Origin: a virus
Strand: one strand, 5' to 3'
Virus record (IMG/VR): IMGVR_UViG_3300028594_000085
Location: 1 to 38,549 of that record
DNA length: 38,549 nt
The notes under the pieces are model-generated. The model did no database searches. It saw nothing but the letters and a program-made list of their open reading frames with translations, and was not told the DNA's origin. Below, one piece after another: positions 3,844-13,363 of the stretch (within the stretch, counting starts at the first letter, position 1; each line of letters begins with the position of its first letter). Made by a program: the position numbers and the translations under genes.

Positions 3844-6800
3844 CCAAGAGGATGGTCTCTTGTTCCGGCTGCTCTTCGACACTGGCAATTTGCATCAACT
3901 CCCCTGTCTCTTCTGCGGCTTTCATATCTGCCCAGAAGGAATTTTCATACTCTACGCGCTCACCGACAAAGCGTATATCAGTGACGCCGTTCCCTTTTAT
4001 GATAATGTAGCCGCTGCCTTTTTCGACCACTTCCCCATTGTTAGGAAATGCCGCAAAGTTAGATACGGCTTTCAGGTACTTATCATCCAGCATAAGCTTA
4101 GTGCCGTGCGGAGAGAGCTGTACATCAAACTCAATATATTCGATGAGCACTTGCGGACTATCGACTGGTGACATTCCAAGGTTTTTGCGATCAATTTCAA
4201 TGGATCCGCCGCTTTTCGACCCGTCAGAAGCAAATATATGCCTTGCTGTGCCTCCCGACCGGAATTCCACCTGTCCATCTTCAAATACCATTATCCTGTT
4301 ATTATGGTCATACCTAAAGTCAATAGCGTTCGCGTAAGATTCTATACCTGCCGTTCCTTGTGATCCGATTCTAAATTGGGTATGGTTTAATCTAAACAAT
4401 CCCCCAACTGTCAACCGGGAAATAAATTCTGACGGACGTGAGACTTCCAGGGAATCGCCGATGTAAACGGGGTCAGAAAAAGAAAAGCCTCTACGCCCGA
4501 TGCTGTCATCCATGCGCCATATCAGCCTGACCGTGTACACACCACCATCATCATGATCGTGGGACCAAGTCATAAAAGAAGCATTGTTAGTGACCTGGAA
4601 TGACAAACCTCTATGGTTTGGGTCAGATTCCCAGTGGGATGTACCAATGTTTCCGATGTGGTTTTCGTCCCGGAAAAATCTGTGCCCTCTATGGTCAAGT
4701 AACGATGTGCGGGTAAGTCCGGAAAATGTTTCTAAACCTACGCTTGATATTTTTACGTATTGAGAGACATTGTTAAAACCGGTTGATACCTGCTGCGCTG
4801 TTATACTGCCTGTATAAATGCCATTAGAATCAAGGTACGTCCCTATACCTCCGTCAATCTGGATAGCTCCCCCAGCTATATAAAGGCCTCTATGGTCCAG
4901 TCTGGCGTACCTGCTAGCGTTTGACGTATAGGCAGTGATGCCGTCGCTGTTTTGCCTAATGGATGTAGGCAAAGGAGATTCAAGACGCAAGTCTTCGCGT
5001 AATGCGTCATCTGATTCAGCTACTTTATTTGTCGTTATGCTTTCCAGAGCATGTTCAATTGTCTGGAGTAAAGGCGACATAAATTCTTTATACGTCTCAA
5101 ACGCTTCGTTTACTGATTCTCTTTCTTCGGAAGTCGCCTTTCCGCCGGCGATTGCCGCATTTATGGCATCCACTAGATTGTTGTAGCGGACCATATAGCC
5201 AGCACTACCGGTGTAAAACGTTTCTTCTAATATAAGGGCGTTGATGTCTGCTATTTGATTGTTTGCTAGTAAAGCATCCACACGACCCTGTAAGATGTTC
5301 TTTTCCGTCTCCAGCATGTGCAGATAAGATTCTATCGCCTTAGCTTCGGTCTCTTCTATTATCCCATCATGAAATGCGTTATTTACATACTCCTGGAAGG
5401 TTCCCAAGTGCTCGTCTGCATGCTCTATGGCGTTGCTTTCCGCGCCGTCTGCTTTGGTCTGTGCAATAGCATCTAACGCCTGCTCAAGGCGAGTAGACAG
5501 GGAAGCTTTAGCATCCGCATAGGCCGCAAATTGAGCATCGACAGCAGCCTTTTCGTTAGGTGTAGTCTTTCCATCTTCAATAGCGTCCAGAATCGTCTGG
5601 ATGAGTGTTTCATAAGCCCCGTTATAGTTCACTTTGGCATTTAATAAGTTGGTACGTTCTGGACCTGGCAGATGGATGTTTGTGTAGATTTCTGCATAGT
5701 GTGCATCGTTTTCTGCCTTTTCGCTCTCAATCGTATTGATATAACTTTCAATGGCTTTCGCTTCCGATTCTTGAATAATGCCATCCCGAAAAGCGCCCTC
5801 GACAAGCTCCCGGAATTGGTCCATTTCAACGACAATTTCAGTCGGGTCATACCCTTCTGCAAACTCAGTTCCTGGTCCAATCTCAATATGATTCGCTGAC
5901 AGCTTACCGATTGCCCCAGCTGTAAGGACGAACCCATCAGCGGTAACAGCTTCGCGGAAGGTATTTCCGCCGTCATTACTGATGCCGATTCCTTCGGAGT
6001 TAAGCAGCACTAATCTGTTAGGGTCATTTTTGTCACGGGCAATGATGCCGTTGTCAAAGATTAATTCCGTTAGCGCCCGTTGCAATGCTGCGGTAGACGT
6101 GCGGACGGCTTCATCCAGGGCGTTGTATCGTATCACGCCGTCATCCGTTACGATCCCATCCAGCTGCTTGCGGACGTTATCAAACATGGTACCAGCAAAA
6201 GACTTCTTATGATTGGATAGTGTGACTTCGGTTTTGTAGGGAACAATCTCTCCCGTTGCCTGGTCATATTTGAAGTGCTCTGTGATCTCCATGATCCGCG
6301 TCTCCAGGAGAAGTTCATCCATGGGCTCATAGATCAGCCAGACGCGATCCCCTTCATTCGGAATGGTATACGGGTAGCCCGCGGCTCGCAAGTCTACAAA
6401 ATCGAGCGTGAGCGTGACCAGGGGTTCATCCTGCAGCCTGGAGATCAATTCTTCTCGGAGAGCATCATCTGACTTGAAACGCTCGTCCTCTACGGGATCA
6501 GCTTCAATCTCTCCGAATATATCCACGTTGGGGCTGCGATAAGAGGCAGAGACGCCAAGCTCCGGATCTCCCGTACCACTGATAACTGTTGCAAGGTTTT
6601 TTGTATCGACTTCCCGCTTGATGGCCTTAATGTTATGGCCGTATCGGAATTGAAAATCGGTATCTCTTCCAATCCGATGGTAGAAATAGACTACATTTCC
6701 TCTCAATTCAAACTCTGCCTTGAAACGATCCAGCCCTTTCTGGAGGAGTGCCAGGCGGTTCTCGTTGCCCAGGTTTTCAAAGGATCGGGCATAGAACGTA

Positions 6801-8058: not shown

Positions 8059-8913
8059 TTAAAATTTAAATTTAAATTCAATCGTAATCGGGTTCGGGCG
8101 TTCCGAATCATCCATCTTACGCCTCGGCATGTTAGCCTGTACCGCTTTCCGCTGTCCGTTGGGGGAGCCGGATATTTCAAGGTCATTCCATCCATGCGCC
8201 AAGCTGATCAGTTTCTTGTTGGTGTCACGGTAGATAGACAGGCCGCTTTTAGTGGATCGAATACCATCAATGGTAAGCGTCTGATTTTCATTTGAGCTGC
8301 CGTTATACCGCCAAACGTCTCCAGTCGTAAGGTTGCGGATCTGCAGGTTGCTAGACTGCCCACGCATACTTATCCGTAAGTGGTCATGGATCGAGCGCGG
8401 ATCTATCGGCTTGCCTGGGTTGTACACCTGGAAGCGCGTCGCCCGTATATTCCTGTAATCATTCGGTCCGACTGGCAGGTCCAAGTGTCTATAAGTCACA
8501 GATTGGAGATTCGTTCCCAGTGATTCCGCATAGCCGGTGAAGGCCGTAAAAGCTACCTCAAAATTACCGTATACGTACGTCTGCGGGATCGTATAGCTGC
8601 TAGCCGTTTTAACCAGCCAGCGTTGTCCGGGTTTCCGTTTCTCGATTAAATAAAATGGCTCGGTTCCGCGGAAGATGTCAAACACCTCGTCGCGGATCCG
8701 TGCAAAGTCGATCGTGTCCTCGGCATCAAATTTAAAGAGGCAAGTGATTTCCCGCGGGCCTTCCTCGGTTCCTAAATCTACAAGACCGGGCATGCCGGGG
8801 ATGGGTTCCATCGTGTGCTCGGGTGCAGGTGAGCCTACGATGAAGTCCTTTGTGCGGATGCCGTACTGGTCTAAATCTATGCTGCTGCCGTCTAGTTTCT
8901 GGACTAATGTCAT
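8059..8913 (-). CDS. Distal tail protein (Dit, siphovirus tail component family)
   Basis: 284 aa, directly after the tape measure gene. Its N-terminus resembles the phage tail family typical of Dit. Confidence 0.8.
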   Translation of the reverse strand: MTLVQKLDGSSIDLDQYGIRTKDFIVGSPAPEHTMEPIPGMPGLVDLGTEEGPREITCLFKFDAEDTIDFARIRDEVFDIFRGTEPFYLIEKRKPGQRWLVKTASSYTIPQTYVYGNFEVAFTAFTGYAESLGTNLQSVTYRHLDLPVGPNDYRNIRATRFQVYNPGKPIDPRSIHDHLRISMRGQSSNLQIRNLTTGDVWRYNGSSNENQTLTIDGIRSTKSGLSIYRDTNKKLISLAHGWNDLEISGSPNGQRKAVQANMPRRKMDDSERPNPITIEFKFKF

Positions 8914-8917
8914 AGGC

Positions 8918-11647
8918 TTACCTTTCTCCTCTCATATATGCTTCTAAGTCCATTCTCGCCTCCAGGTCTAAGTCCAGTGGATCCATAATCGCATTTAGAA
9001 TTTCCTCGCCTTCCACCTGGACGCTGACCGGGCGGGACGCAAGTTTTTCTATTGCCCTTGCCAGGTTCGCCAGCTGCCCGATATTCTGCTGCGGTGCTGG
9101 TGTGATTCGAGAGCCCGGAGCGATCCGAGGTACGTCCAGCATGGCATTAAGTTTCGCCTGAATGTCTGGTATCGCGCTATCAATCGAGTCGCTGATCGGG
9201 CCTTCAAAATTAAGCTTATGAATATCAGTTAACGGGCCTTCTTTAGCTGGAGAAAACGGGAGGAAGTCCCTAATTTTCCCGGCCACGTCGCTGATTGCTC
9301 CTGTGACTTTTCCGACGGCGTTCTTGATCCCGTCTGCAATACTGGTGACGATGTTCCGGCCAGCGTTGAAGAAGTCCTTGACTCGATCCGTTACTGCCCG
9401 CAATGCGCTTCGTATCCCATTTGACACTGCGTTTCTTACGCTGTTAAAGGCGTTCGACACGATGCCCCGCAGGGAATTAAAGATATTCGAGATGGTGTTT
9501 CGTATGCTGTTTACCACATTCGAGATCGTATTGCGGATGCCGTTCCAGATATTTGATATTGTACTCCGCACGCTGTTCATGACGTTTGATATCGTGTTCC
9601 GGATCGCATTAAAGACGTTAGTAATTGTATTTCTGATAGAATTGATGACGTTTGAAATAGTATTCCGGATATCATTAAAGACGTTTGAAATGGTATTCCG
9701 GATGTTATTAAAGATGTTTCTGGCCTGTTGATACAGGTTTGTGAAGAAATTGACGACTCCGTCAACAATACTTTTAACGAGATCAATCGCTCGCTTGAAT
9801 AAGTCCTTAAACCAGTCGACAATTGCATTGACCATATCCGGTATGATCGAGTTTCCGACCAGGGTCATATACAAGCCCTGGAAAAAATCAATGATCGACT
9901 GGACAAAGCCTTTTACAAAGTTAGCAAGCCCTTTAAAGATATTGATAAAGAAATCTACCGCTGACTGTCCGGCATCCTGCAAGAACTGGAACGCTCCCGC
10001 AAAGTCACCAGTAAAGAGCGCGACAACGGCATTGACTACATTGACGATAAAGTCCAGCAGGTTTACAAAAGCGTTTATCAGCGGGCCGATTGCCGCAATG
10101 ACTCCCGTAAAGACGCCAGTAATGACTCCGAAGACAGCCATAAAGGCTGCACCCACTAATTCAAGCAGCGGGATCAGGCTCTGCCAGAGGTTTTTCAGAC
10201 TGTCCATGATCGGACCGACCGAATCGAGAAGCGTCTGAAATGCCCCCCGTACCGTCGCCAGAAGGGGCTCGAAATGTCCAAAGACGTCGATTGCCTTTTC
10301 CTTGACCGTCTCCCAGTTTTGATAGAGTAAGACCCCTATGGCAATGAGTGACCCGATAATGGCGATCACGATTCCTACCGGTCCGGTCAGCGCACCAAAG
10401 ACGGCGCCTAACAGTTTCAGACTTCCCATAATCTGACCGACGGACGCGATAAGCGTTCCGAGGATGACTAATAGCGGTCCGATAGCAGCAGCTACCGCAC
10501 CGATAATAACTGTGATTGCGATAAACTCATCTGACAGGCTGTTAAACCAGTCTACTGCCTCTTGTACAATGCCGATCACCGTCTCGATGGCCGGCTGCAG
10601 GGACTCCCATATACGGAGGGCGACCTCTTCCAGGGCTGACCGCAGCTGCAGCAGTTTCCCGGCTGTCGTATCTCCCATAATCGCGGCCATCTCTGCAGCA
10701 GCGCCTTCGGCATCATTTAAGCTGCCGGTAAAATCTCCCAGGTTTTCAGACCCGGCAGAGATAAGAGCAGACCAGCCGGAAACCGCCTGCGCCCCGAACA
10801 GCGTTTCAAGCGTTGCTGTTTTCTGCTGATCTGTCATTCCTTCCAGACCTTTTTCAAGCTCTCCGATCACTTCCGGCATCGACTTCATTTGACCTTCAGC
10901 GTCGAAGATCTCCAGCCCAAGCTCGTCCATCAAGTCAGATACAGCAGAAGTAGGGGAGGCCAGGCGTAAAAGACCAGCTCGCAGGACAGTACCTGCTTGT
11001 CCACCGGCGATACCTGCATCTCCCAGGACCCCGACGGCTGCTGCGGTTTCTTCTACGGATATTCCGAGGGCAGCTGCTACAGGTGCGACGTATTTCATTG
11101 CCTCACCCATAGACTCGACCGTGGTATTAGAGTTAGCTGTCGCAGCTGCCAGGACGTCTGCTACTCGTCCAGCTTCGGCGGCTTCCATGCCAAACCCGGA
11201 TAGGATGTTTGACGCAATGTCAGCAGCGACGCCTAAGTCAGCGCCGGACGCTGCAGCCAGGTCAAGCAGCCCTGGCATGGCTTCCATGACCTCGTTTGCA
11301 CTAAAGCCCGCACGCGCGAGAAACTCCATCCCTTCCGCGGCTTGGAGCGCCGAGAATTTAGTGGTAGCCCCAAGCTCCCGGGCCTGTGCTTCCATAGCAT
11401 CCATCTCTTCGGCTGTTGCCCCTGATACGGCAGCAACCCTCGCCATACCACTCTCGAAGTCCATCCCGAGCTTGACAGCGAAACCAGCTGCGGCCGTCAG
11501 GGGAACGGTAAGGCTTTTTGATAGGGTCTTACCGACGTCTTTGACACCGTCACCGGCTGACTTTAATTTATTCTGTAGATCGGACAGGCCTTTTTCCAGG
11601 CCCTTGTCATTTAACTCTGAATCTATGACGACTCTTCCATCTGACAA
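8918..11647 (-). CDS. Tail tape measure protein (TP901-family core)
   Basis: 909 aa. Core motif MARVAAVSGAT..ELGATTKFSA..AAEGMEFLARAGF, glycine-rich TM-like central region, and nine tandem 11-aa repeats (IRNTISNVxNx) near the C-terminus. TTG start with GGGGGTGA SD. Confidence 0.9.
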   Translation of the reverse strand: MSDGRVVIDSELNDKGLEKGLSDLQNKLKSAGDGVKDVGKTLSKSLTVPLTAAAGFAVKLGMDFESGMARVAAVSGATAEEMDAMEAQARELGATTKFSALQAAEGMEFLARAGFSANEVMEAMPGLLDLAAASGADLGVAADIASNILSGFGMEAAEAGRVADVLAAATANSNTTVESMGEAMKYVAPVAAALGISVEETAAAVGVLGDAGIAGGQAGTVLRAGLLRLASPTSAVSDLMDELGLEIFDAEGQMKSMPEVIGELEKGLEGMTDQQKTATLETLFGAQAVSGWSALISAGSENLGDFTGSLNDAEGAAAEMAAIMGDTTAGKLLQLRSALEEVALRIWESLQPAIETVIGIVQEAVDWFNSLSDEFIAITVIIGAVAAAIGPLLVILGTLIASVGQIMGSLKLLGAVFGALTGPVGIVIAIIGSLIAIGVLLYQNWETVKEKAIDVFGHFEPLLATVRGAFQTLLDSVGPIMDSLKNLWQSLIPLLELVGAAFMAVFGVITGVFTGVIAAIGPLINAFVNLLDFIVNVVNAVVALFTGDFAGAFQFLQDAGQSAVDFFINIFKGLANFVKGFVQSIIDFFQGLYMTLVGNSIIPDMVNAIVDWFKDLFKRAIDLVKSIVDGVVNFFTNLYQQARNIFNNIRNTISNVFNDIRNTISNVINSIRNTITNVFNAIRNTISNVMNSVRSTISNIWNGIRNTISNVVNSIRNTISNIFNSLRGIVSNAFNSVRNAVSNGIRSALRAVTDRVKDFFNAGRNIVTSIADGIKNAVGKVTGAISDVAGKIRDFLPFSPAKEGPLTDIHKLNFEGPISDSIDSAIPDIQAKLNAMLDVPRIAPGSRITPAPQQNIGQLANLARAIEKLASRPVSVQVEGEEILNAIMDPLDLDLEARMDLEAYMRGER
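9410..9725 (-). repeat. Nine tandem 33-nt (11-aa) coding repeats inside the tape measure gene
   Basis: Protein repeats NIRNTISNVFN / DIRNTISNVIN / SIRNTITNVFN and so on, read directly from the translation. Confidence 0.85.
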
Positions 11648-11656
11648 TACATTTCA

Positions 11657-11676
11657 CCCCCATTGTAAAATGGGGG
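11657..11676 (-). promoter_or_regulatory. Hairpin overlapping the tape measure SD
   Basis: Minus-strand RNA ccccca-uuuuacaa-uggggg (6 bp, 5 of them G-C). The 3' arm forms most of the GGGGGUGA SD of the TTG start at 11647. Confidence 0.5.
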
Positions 11677-11688
11677 CTCAATGGCTCT

Positions 11689-11802
11689 CTATTTTTTGTA
11701 TGAATTCAAGGTGCGGCATCGAGGGCATTTAATCTCCGCCTCACCTTTTACTTTCCCCAGCAGCTTGTTACAGCTTTTGCACCGGGCTTCCTCCAGTTTC
11801 AT
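11689..11802 (-). CDS. com: Mu Com-like zinc-ribbon protein (37 aa), absent from the ORF track
   Basis: Translation is MKLEEARCKSCNKLLGKVKGEAEIKCPRCRTLNSYKK. The pattern RCKxCNKLL...EI(K/R)CPRC matches the phage Mu Com zinc finger. The ATG overlaps the upstream stop (ATGA at 11799-11802). Confidence 0.7.
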   Translation of the reverse strand: MKLEEARCKSCNKLLGKVKGEAEIKCPRCRTLNSYKK

Positions 11803-12413
11803 TGCTTGCCACCACCTTTTGCAAACGTGCTGGCTACAGCATCCAGAGTATTTTCAAGCGTTTCTTGTTTCTCTTCCGGATCCTCCAGGGAGTGCAGCTG
11901 TTTCATTTTAATCACGTGGTTGCGGTATTCTTCCGTCGCCTGTTTTCCAGACGGGACTTTCATTGTCCGGTAACCAACAGCCTTTTTAAAGGCAGTGGAG
12001 TCTGATAGGTTGGTTAATAGGGCCATAAACTGACTCCACTGCAGCTGCCCCTGGACCTTAAATAAATCTATCTGATACTCGGAAAGAAAAGACGCGTAGA
12101 TCATCCCCGCATCTTTCTTCCAGTCCATTATTTTCTTTTTTGGTTGATCCTCATCTGTTTGCTTCTCCGGATCTAAAAACTCTTTCTGAATAAAATAGAA
12201 AAGCTCCAGCTGGTACTCAAATTCAAGCTGCATTATTTCCTCATGGTCAATAATCAGCATTTTAAGGGCCGTAGAGATCTTTTCATAGGCGTTAAACATA
12301 TCGTCCTCGAAAAGCTCAAAGAGCCGCAGGACGTTATCGTATGCTAAATTTAGGCGTATCTCCTGGCCGTCGAGTTCAAAACTACTCTCGGGAGGACGGG
12401 AGAGCGTTAGCAT
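11799..12413 (-). CDS. Gp15-like tail assembly protein (second chaperone-position gene)
   Basis: 204 aa between the chaperone and tape measure genes. The sequence is of the type annotated as bacteriophage Gp15 in Listeria and Bacillus siphoviruses. Confidence 0.6.
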   Translation of the reverse strand: MLTLSRPPESSFELDGQEIRLNLAYDNVLRLFELFEDDMFNAYEKISTALKMLIIDHEEIMQLEFEYQLELFYFIQKEFLDPEKQTDEDQPKKKIMDWKKDAGMIYASFLSEYQIDLFKVQGQLQWSQFMALLTNLSDSTAFKKAVGYRTMKVPSGKQATEEYRNHVIKMKQLHSLEDPEEKQETLENTLDAVASTFAKGGGKQ

Positions 12414-12801
12414 TTACTTTCAGCCCTGTATATTTTTTGAGTTGGTCAGCCCGAATACTTTCTGCTTTTTCCTTAATCGGTTCCGCCAGGAAATAAACCA
12501 TATCGACCATATTCAGCAGGGAGTTTCCGGACTCTTTATAAAGCCTCTCAAATTCCCCATCCCCAAGCATTAAGTCTACAAAGTCTTTGACCAGTTTCCG
12601 CATCTCCAGGAACATCTCATTCTGTTCTTTTGCGGATAGATCTTTGACATCTTTCTTCTGTAAGTCCTGGGTTTTCAAAAAGAACTGTTCAAATTCTCGG
12701 TTGTATTCCATTACTTTTTCGTCTGAAAAGTCTAGTGTGTAGGTCTTGCCTGCAATTTCTATGTCTTCCGTTTTCGTCTGAAACTCAAATTTTCTAGTCA
12801 T
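12382..12801 (-). CDS. Tail assembly chaperone
   Basis: Sits between the major tail protein and tape measure genes. The ATG at 12801 has GGAGG 7 nt upstream; the track start at 12816 lies within that SD. Confidence 0.65.
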   Translation of the reverse strand: MTRKFEFQTKTEDIEIAGKTYTLDFSDEKVMEYNREFEQFFLKTQDLQKKDVKDLSAKEQNEMFLEMRKLVKDFVDLMLGDGEFERLYKESGNSLLNMVDMVYFLAEPIKEKAESIRADQLKKYTGLKVNANALPSSRE

Positions 12802-12823
12802 GGTAATCCTCCTCATAATTTAA

Positions 12824-12848
12824 AGAGGGAAGGGGTTCCCGACCCTCT
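12824..12848 (-). terminator. Weak attenuator-like hairpin after the major tail protein gene
   Basis: 6-bp stem agaggg/ccctct with a GC-rich interior. Followed on the minus strand by UUUAAAUU. Confidence 0.3.
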
Positions 12849-12856
12849 GCATGGTT

Positions 12857-13363
12857 TTATTCTGCTTTCTGCTCTTCGAGCTGACGCGTTGCGGTCTGTG
12901 TGCTTGCTGTGCTTGTCCCGCTGATTCCATTGCCGGCTGTAAATTCCGGCTTACCGTTAAAGTGGATCTCGAAGCCGATCTCGCCTTTCGCTCCAGCTTC
13001 TCCGCCTGGTCCTGTAATAGCTGCAATAGTGACAGGCCCCTCATAAGAAGATCCGTCAGGAAGCGTCCAGCGGAAAGTTGTGCGGCGGGCAGGTCCCGGC
13101 TCTAATAAGAGTCCGAAAATATAATCTTGTGCTGCATCCCCGTATTTCCGGTGACCAGAAAACGTAAGCACCAGTTGCGCGCCGATAACGTCTGTCTCTG
13201 CAAAGCCTTCCCCGTCAAAATACCGGTCCTGGGCTGTCTCGTCGTTTGGATCTGGTTCCATGCTCGTAATACCAGCGCCCAGGCGCACAAAATTTTCATC
13301 GCCGGTTCCCGGAGATGTATTCAGTTCTAATAAGTGTTTCGACTGCAAAAGAAATTCTGCCAT
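12857..13363 (-). CDS. Major tail (tube) protein
   Basis: 168 aa, positioned upstream of the chaperones. Beta-rich sequence of the type seen in phi13 / TP901-1-like major tail proteins. Confidence 0.8.
   Translation of the reverse strand: MAEFLLQSKHLLELNTSPGTGDENFVRLGAGITSMEPDPNDETAQDRYFDGEGFAETDVIGAQLVLTFSGHRKYGDAAQDYIFGLLLEPGPARRTTFRWTLPDGSSYEGPVTIAAITGPGGEAGAKGEIGFEIHFNGKPEFTAGNGISGTSTASTQTATRQLEEQKAE

Follow-up and report, generated by a model that had tools for sequence, protein, structure and literature searches.

The stretch of DNA analysed here (IMG/VR virus record IMGVR_UViG_3300028594_000085, 38,549 nt, hereafter the window) is a complete-looking siphovirus-type (pro)phage, the minus strand of which carries nearly all genes, with endolysin, tail module, head module, terminase and replication genes. 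Within its tail module, a small open reading frame (ORF) related to the translational regulator Com of phage Mu lies directly upstream of the tape measure protein (TMP) gene, separated from it by a short non-coding element, and it is this arrangement that we investigate. In minus-strand order, the 204-aa Gp15-like tail gene (11799..12413; PF06854, E=2e-37; phrog_706, E=7e-52) is followed by the 37-aa zinc-ribbon ORF (11689..11802; PF10122, phrog_6417), whose ATG (11802-11800) overlaps the TGA of the Gp15-like gene (11801-11799) as ATGA and whose own Shine-Dalgarno (SD) sequence, AAGGTGGTGG (11809..11818), lies 6 nt 5' of this ATG. The TAG stop of the small ORF (11691-11689) is followed after 41 nt, on the same strand, by the TTG start of the 909-aa TMP gene (8918..11647; PF10145, E=2e-60; TMP PHROGs down to 5e-153), the proposed regulated target. 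Between the two genes, again on the minus strand, there are a putative bipartite Com-binding site, GAGAGCC-AUU-GAGCCCC (11673..11689), recognised by its conservation and its agreement with a published consensus, a hairpin (11656..11677) that by folding and covariation sequesters the SD of the TMP gene, and this SD itself, GGGGGUGA (11654..11661), assigned by sequence reading. The coordinates of the small ORF and its ATGA overlap had been given in a preliminary description of the window made from the letters alone, and we confirmed both.

On sequence evidence, the 37-aa ORF is a real gene and a relative of Com. Its product, MKLEEARCKSCNKLLGKVKGEAEIKCPRCRTLNSYKK, has a CxxC-14-CxxC arrangement, and the likeness to Mu Com that had been put forward, with a Pfam search suggested as the check, was borne out: Zn_ribbon_Com (PF10122) matches residues 3-35 (profile positions 2-36 of 52) with 32.6 bits against a gathering score of 22.9 (E=5.3e-8). 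Matching PHROG families are annotated as 'translational regulator' (phrog_6417, 9e-10) and 'gpCom' (phrog_13819, 6e-7). The ORF had also been called untracked, which proved wrong, since the ORF is already present in the protein collection as a called gene with PF10122. All 26 aligned relatives match this family, and residues R7, C8, C11, I24, C26 and C29 are invariant among them, Mu/D108 Com included, while L14, L15, E23, K25, R28 and N33 are at least 90% conserved in the alignment with D108/Mu Com. D108/Mu Com (MKSIRCKNCNKLLFKADSFDHIEIRCPRCK...) and the window ORF have in common the four cysteines and the RC..CNKLL / EI(K/R)CPRC signature, which takes the form RC..C.KLL...EI(K/R)C.(R/K)C when the aligned relatives are taken together with Mu/D108 Com. 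The diversity at codon positions 1, 2 and 3 (0.19/0.13/0.48; 38 distinct nucleotide versions, 23-codon core) indicates that the ORF encodes a protein under purifying selection, and a sequence similar to its SD, AAGG(C/T)GGTGG, stands 5' of the Com-like ORF in relatives. The protein ends 8 residues past the last cysteine, with no C-terminal tail. A tblastn search against phages yielded weak matches (at most 53% identity) in Mu-like or P2-like phages and in the Bacillus phages Slash, Staley and BCPST, and the window ORF padded with in-frame upstream residues had only one word-level relative, in a non-tail context. A sequence search of the PDB returned no Com structure, and we found no solved structure of a Com protein or complex. 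In Bacillus phage Slash (NC_022774; L227, 2630-2680), a 39-aa protein is annotated as 'gpCom' and is followed 9 nt later by an annotated terminator, the 5' arm of which begins with GAGCACC, a single GAG(N)2CC half-site; there is no obvious target gene 3' of it on that strand.

The non-coding element past the stop codon forms a 9-bp hairpin, GCCCCCAUU-UUAC-AAUGGGGGU, with its 5' arm at 11677-11669, the UUAC loop at 11668-11665 and its 3' arm at 11664-11656. This span counts a closing G.U pair; the Watson-Crick core, 11657-11676, is the hairpin that the preliminary description had placed 12 nt past the stop, and it indeed starts 11-12 nt after the TAG. The further claim that the 3' arm supplies most of the TMP SD also stands, as six of the eight bases sit in this arm and GGGGGU is held in the hairpin. 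The SD differs by one base from GGAGGUGA, which we take to be the SD complementary to the 3' end of 16S rRNA, and lies 6 nt from the TTG (11647). This TTG is the sole possible TMP start after an in-frame TGA (11656-11654) and aligns with the ATG/GTG of the 'MADG(K/R)V.ID' starts in relatives, in agreement with the start assigned earlier. In a 140-nt context, the predicted probability that the G-run of the SD is unpaired is about 2e-5, and the hairpin, which alone has a folding energy of -13.8 kcal/mol, is present in both the minimum free energy (MFE) and the centroid structures. The fold z-score for the 101-nt stretch is only -1.7, and the significance of the hairpin therefore comes from its conservation, covariation and co-occurrence with the ORF, not from the window sequence alone.

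The same hairpin forms in each of the 48 distinct variants collected from relatives, with folding energies of -10 to -18 kcal/mol and loops of 4 to about 20 nt that differ in sequence, and nearly all variants keep the SD as GGGGGUGA. Across 11 anchored pairs in 29 distinct stems, 91.2% of cells are paired compared with 78.8% after shuffling, and the covariation score is 0.351 compared with 0.149, the observed value being reached in 0 of 500 shuffles in both cases; slid stem registers give 36-58% pairing. Double (compensatory) changes are found at 4 stem pairs; pair 8:19 occurs as UA (18), AU (7) and GC (1), and pair 9:18 as AU (12), UA (8), GC (3) and CG (1). Rfam covariance models gave no match at gathering score in the window, with only noise (E > 2) within 11400-12000. 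In the window, the spacer also pairs with the 3 nt that follow the SD to give a lower helix; this helix failed a by-eye check in six relatives, and we rejected it as a conserved feature. About 23 of the 48 variants carry AUG-UAA-AUG after the SD (e.g., L020, 4757-4768), that is, a two-codon start-stop at ideal SD spacing that directly abuts the TMP AUG, which is then 12 nt from the G-run. The window has an out-of-frame AUG (11652-11650) and the TTG start instead, and we do not count the start-stop as part of the core mechanism. On the antisense (plus) strand at 11672-11699, the bipartite motif forms a 7-bp stem that makes use of G.U pairs, and the Lys codons of the ORF supply a T-run after it; the scan scored this arrangement as terminator-like; this stem is probably incidental, since the C-terminal codons of the ORF differ in relatives.

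The module of Com-like ORF and hairpin recurs in dozens of Bacillus-group phages. The survey of this junction that had been proposed along with the preliminary description was carried out in three independent ways. From the Gp15 side, an alignment of 37 homologues led to 80 genomic and 80 viral loci, the genomic ones mainly from Bacillaceae (Oceanobacillus, Gracilibacillus, Cerasibacillus, Halalkalibacter, Lysinibacillus, Pueribacillus and Pseudogracilibacillus). In 18 of these 160 loci, the gene directly 5' of TMP is a Com-like ORF (35-53 aa), and the non-coding element is present in 17 of the 18 and in none of the 142 Com-less loci. The distance from the stop of the Com-like ORF to the TMP start is 41-58 nt across relatives, and where a further gene follows Gp15, the Com-like ORF remains with the TMP start. 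The conserved pattern runs from UA(A)GAGAGCC-N2-4-GAGCCCCU through a variable stem and loop to GGGGGUGA, followed by about 9 nt and the TMP start. From the RNA side, an exact-pattern scan gave 11 viral and 53 metagenome hits, and a Com-like ORF ends exactly at the motif in 40 of the 63 pattern-scan loci (10/11 viral, 30/53 metagenome), with a TMP-type gene 3' of the motif at all of those for which enough downstream sequence was read. One of them (L171) has a divergent TMP N-terminus and no Gp15-type ORF seen upstream, homology not having been used there. The other hits comprise 2 loci cut off upstream, 5 non-phage loci and a remainder of GC-rich, chance-looking matches.

In the third approach, a covariance model built from the 18 protein-found examples scored a single site of the window at 55.8 bits, the next best match reaching 10 bits; since the window site is itself a training sequence, only the lack of a second site is informative. 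None of the Com-less Gp15 loci scores above 21 bits. In these loci the TMP start lies about 30 nt after Gp15, the median local MFE is -7.5 kcal/mol, compared with -16.2 kcal/mol in the Com-carrying ones, and the openness of the SD region is 0.49, compared with 0.30 (p=3.5e-4). Eight Com-less loci (L017, L106, L108, L114, L119, L123, L133 and L159) have a terminator-like hairpin with a T-run about 20-60 nt before the TMP start, followed, just before the TMP gene, by a short GCC(U)-GAAA-GGCAGGUGA hairpin that contains the SD. Possibly, throttling at the Gp15/TMP junction is a common need that may be met in different ways.

The sequence kept between the stop codon and the stem corresponds to what is known of RNA recognition by Com. 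Systematic evolution of ligands by exponential enrichment (SELEX) with the zinc-finger domain of Haemophilus Com selected two copies of 5'-GAG(N)2CC-3', and the best binder, RNA I (CGAGAACCAGAGAGUUCCGG), contains GAGAACC-AGA-GAGUUCC (Nowacka et al., 2019; PMC6483171). According to the same study, Com binds 5'-CC(N)2-3GAG-3' shown in a 6-nt loop closed by C-G, the Mu site, GAAUGCCUGCGAGCAUCCCACGGAG, partly overlaps the translation-inhibition structure (TIS), and Mu Com acts as an activator; the zinc-finger domain alone binds RNA, the C-terminal tail being dispensable for binding and possibly needed for TIS melting, as truncated Com bound the RNA without visibly opening the hairpin (PMC6483171). 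The window element has the form GAG(N2)CC-N3-GAG(N2)CC with CC-AUU-GAG inside it, which is the architecture of RNA I, and its 10-mer GCC-NNN-GAGC has the same form as GCC-UGC-GAGC of Mu. The first G of half-site 1 (11683-11689) also belongs to the TAG stop, and half-site 2 (11673-11679) reaches into the 5' arm of the hairpin, where it provides the G and four Cs as pairing partners of the SD. In 17 of the 18 protein-found loci both half-sites are conserved after the stop, while the spacer is free in sequence and in length (2-4 nt), as the SELEX consensus predicts. The bipartite motif is found 2 times in the window, compared with 0.23 expected.

We postulate that the ORF and the element constitute a two-part switch of the com-mom type, in which the Com-like protein frees the SD and turns on TMP translation, and we consider this reading probable, with moderate confidence. 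A Com-type switch on a tail gene had been suggested in the preliminary description, and the family match, the recurrence, the conserved hairpin and the Com motif, which that description had not noticed, now lend it computational support; all of its suggested checks that can be done by computation turned out favourable. A late tail mRNA would bear the Gp15-like gene, the Com-like ORF, the non-coding element and the TMP gene, the ORF and the TMP gene presumably being co-transcribed. By default, the hairpin would pair GGGGGU of the TMP SD with GCCCCC and thus block TMP initiation. The Com-like zinc ribbon, translated from its own strong SD and packed tightly against the Gp15-like gene, would bind zinc and recognise the bipartite GAGAGCC-N3-GAGCCCC site. 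Since half-site 2 is the 5' arm of the hairpin, binding should compete with the stem; holding the GAGCCCC strand would prevent the stem or open it, so that GGGGGUGA would become exposed and TMP be translated. Such a switch could act as a delay or proportionality device, with TMP made once, or in proportion as, the upstream tail proteins and Com accumulate. Activation is the favoured sign because the stem already silences the SD, because Mu Com activates, and because the same motif lies elsewhere on strong terminator-like hairpins, for which only opening would be useful. Given one covariance-model site in the window and no mom gene or DNA methyltransferase among its roughly 25 largest ORFs (smaller ORFs being unannotated), the switch probably has a single target.

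Several points weigh against this interpretation. About 89% of Gp15-type phages do without the module, and the window protein does not have the disordered C-terminal tail of Mu Com, which may matter for TIS melting. Here, just two Watson-Crick pairs would form in the Mu-like mini-hairpin (GCC-NNN-GAGC with a 6-nt loop closed by C-G), which we retain as an analogy and not as a demonstrated structure, and the stem to be opened amounts to -14 kcal/mol. With 8 copies found and 5.7 expected, the window shows no enrichment of the short motif GCCNNNGAGC; the weight of the motif argument comes from its conservation in non-coding sequence and its fixed position. Moreover, most variants derive from the exact-pattern scan, which biases motif conservation upward, the 18 protein-found examples being unbiased in this respect, and the covariation register was anchored on each sequence's own MFE partner.

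The same parts could also work with the opposite sign, if the Com-like protein stabilised the hairpin or blocked the 30S subunit and thereby served as a feedback limiter that holds TMP at a low level compared with the upstream tail proteins. Virions contain few copies of TMP, which would fit such a limiter, and with the putative binding site right next to the SD hairpin, steric considerations allow either outcome; in addition, truncated Com bound its RNA without detectable melting (PMC6483171). However, a repressor would add little to a hairpin that on its own sequesters the SD nearly completely (2e-5 unpaired), Mu Com is an activator (PMC6483171), and stabilising the strong terminator-like hairpins that carry the motif in non-phage loci would be pointless, whereas opening them would be sensible. 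Hence, we regard repression as rather unlikely. In another scenario the peptide would be incidental, and translation of the small ORF would unwind the hairpin, allowing ribosomes to reinitiate on TMP. The strong SD of the ORF, its packing against the upstream gene and the near-constant spacing in relatives between its stop and the stem (11-12 nt in the window) would suit such coupling. Yet the peptide is under purifying selection with an invariant zinc-ribbon signature, the 12 non-coding nt past the stop are kept as a specific motif that coupling does not need, and, as estimated from the usual size of ribosome footprints, a ribosome that terminates on the ORF would extend no further than the base of the stem, with 41-58 nt between stop and start; we therefore find leader-ORF coupling quite unlikely.

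A location among tail assembly genes, together with the ability of small zinc ribbons to mediate protein contacts, would be compatible with a small assembly or structural protein that binds, for example, TMP or the Gp15-like protein, and no solved structure of Com or of a Com complex constrains its function; the hairpin would then be unrelated and would damp TMP translation or stabilise the mRNA. Against this, the protein and the element are gained and lost together (17/18 and 0/142), the pair accompanies TMP genes from more than one family and stands behind varied upstream genes, and the element bears the published Com RNA motif, which co-occurs with Com-like proteins outside phages as well, which makes an assembly role very unlikely. 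That the hairpin is a terminator, an RNA-processing site or a recoding signal that fuses the small ORF to TMP by readthrough or frameshifting is scarcely credible to us. It is a GC-rich stem-loop between genes, and some Com-less relatives do have true terminators before TMP, but the stem here is followed by GAAAUGUAUUG with no U-tract and the terminator scan makes no minus-strand call, and we rejected a terminator function on these grounds. The fusion was rejected as well, since Com and TMP are read in different frames (their offset of 155 nt is not divisible by 3), the frame is not conserved across relatives, in which the hairpin length varies from 25 to 42 nt, and the Com frame meets a stop 20 codons on.

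The proposed activating switch resembles the com-mom system of Mu and D108 in several respects: the protein belongs to the same family, with the core RC(K)xCNKLL...EI(K/R)CPRC; the regulator gene lies directly 5' of its target, presumably on one mRNA; the motif is, by sequence alone, of the CC(N)2-3GAG / GAG(N)2CC type; and the site is 5'-adjacent to and overlaps a hairpin that hides start signals of the target (PMC6483171). In contrast to Mu and D108, the window target is a core tail morphogenesis gene and not a DNA-modification gene, the setting is siphophages of Firmicutes (Bacillales) and not a Mu-like phage of Gram-negative bacteria, and the half-sites are direct repeats with almost no mini-stem. 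Mu Com has 62 aa with a disordered tail of about 27 residues, while the window protein, like its TMP-linked relatives of 35-46 aa, is a bare zinc ribbon; the tail of Mu Com lies outside the Pfam domain. The hairpin hides the SD here and the GUG start in Mu, and the RNA site lies past the stop of the regulator here, unlike in D108, where the com ORF itself contains it and shares 80 nt with mom. Com homologues are also known to precede DNA methyltransferases in FluMu/Pnme1 (PMC3299994) and the Burkholderia P2-like phage KS5 (PMC3091744), as well as llpA and further cargo genes of Pseudomonas tailocin clusters (PMC6240691, PMC4684702), where their general regulatory role 'remains to be explored' (PMC6240691). 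We found a further homologue preceding a DNA methyltransferase in clone 2F_1. In those systems, as in the window, Com appears as a portable regulator before varied single genes, sometimes inside tail clusters; their targets, however, are accessory (methylases, bacteriocins), they belong to Proteobacteria, and their Com proteins have about 60 aa with tails. None of the four papers (PMC3299994, PMC3091744, PMC6240691, PMC4684702) describes a structural virion gene as a target or a conserved RNA element. The element also recalls generic SD-sequestering hairpins of phage late operons, in which a stable stem pairs the SD and translation needs an opener, but differs from them in having a dedicated conserved Com-like protein and a conserved motif, and in that the Com-less relatives have no comparable stem. 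Full-text literature searches returned no paper that ties a Com-like protein to a tape measure gene or describes this RNA element. Thus, the regulator family and the apparent mechanism are already known, while the core tail target, the host phylum, the minimal protein and the site after the stop codon would be new.

Upstream of the Gp15-like gene, the minus strand carries the major tail protein gene (12857..13363) and a gene for a phrog_1061 protein (12382..12816); Dit and more tail proteins come after the TMP gene in minus-strand order. A G/GT-type frameshift linking 12382..12816 to the Gp15-like gene is unlikely, as a TAA precedes the Gp15 ATG in its own frame. No match was found when the DNA of 11400-12900 was compared with 50,697 phage records, and there is no annotated close relative. 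The TMP gene contains at 9558-9719 (minus strand, residues ~645-760) about 10 degenerate copies of the tandemly repeated unit IRNTISNVxNx (33 nt, 11 aa); TRF reports 4.2 copies at 77% identity. Residue ~17 of TMP aligns with TMP PHROG profile positions ~200-290, and, judged by these profile start positions, the window TMP is without a region of about 200 N-terminal residues that is found in many family members.

Com-like proteins of this kind are not confined to the tape measure class. Viral contigs contain at least 433 Com-like relatives by a protein-side scan with a tight alignment. A clade with …CNKLLGKIKGEAEIKCPRCG… and a short tail (L231, L233-L236, L238, L240, L243, L245 and L247) precedes a protein of about 200 aa starting MASLKELLGDAYKEG, which we take to be scaffold/GP20-like. 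In this clade, 1-2 GUGC-AGAGAA-GCAC mini-hairpins lie about 20-130 nt past the Com-like stop, and with a 4-bp stem and a C-G closed 6-nt loop they are shaped like the Mu Com site. Further viral loci (L275, L280, L269 and L254) have a variant, GAGGCUC-N2-GAAGCCC or GAGGGUCC-A-GAACCCC, just past the Com-like stop and before TMP-like genes of 700-810 aa. As in the window, the 3' arm of the variant hairpin contains the SD in L275 and L280; in L254 the hairpin has a U-run and is terminator-like, and the 700-aa gene downstream may encode a portal protein and not TMP.

Outside phages, three metagenome loci carry a Com-like ORF of 59-78 aa with 2-3 tandem GAGAGCC-N2-3-GAGCCCC copies (L202: ORF 1553-1747, motifs 1789 and 1919, minus strand; L223: ORF 8394-8588, motifs 8627, 8744 and 8869; L205: ORF 4191-4427, motifs 4072 and 4493). 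Each half-site 2 begins a GC-rich, terminator-like hairpin with a U-run. These loci lie upstream of thiolase-like and 3-hydroxyacyl-CoA-dehydrogenase-like genes and beside a regulator-type ORF of about 700 aa (N-terminal reading). The position of the motif on the 5' arm of terminator-like hairpins beside non-phage Com-like ORFs gives independent support to the link between protein and motif, and such ORFs may represent a cellular Com-like antiterminator. In L197 and L210 (motif at 935 and 1784, respectively), the motif is upstream of genes that by sequence reading are cob(I)alamin-adenosyltransferase-like and methylmalonyl-CoA-mutase-like, and the cluster ends with a Com-like ORF of 64-73 aa, on the same strand as the motif and about 8.4 kb downstream of it.

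We tentatively speculate, while considering it somewhat doubtful in this general form, that minimal Com-like ribbons of Firmicutes form a broad unrecognised class that captures the 5' arms of hairpins through GAG(N)2CC-type half-sites, switching on translation of phage morphogenesis genes (tape measure, possibly scaffold) and, in chromosomes, readthrough of tandem terminators before metabolic operons. Com has so far been a one-system curiosity, known from Mu mom and from methylase and bacteriocin cargo in Proteobacteria, and is here tied to a core structural gene of Gram-positive siphophages. The defined pair of a protein of about 37 aa and an RNA of about 45 nt would offer a second, simpler natural substrate for the study of Com-RNA recognition, and so compact a module could act as an orthogonal translational switch in Bacillus. 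If the proposed switch operates as we suggest, it would be the first trans-acting mechanism described for the translational control of tape measure synthesis, and would bear on how these phages keep the aggregation-prone, low-copy TMP in step with the upstream tail-assembly proteins.

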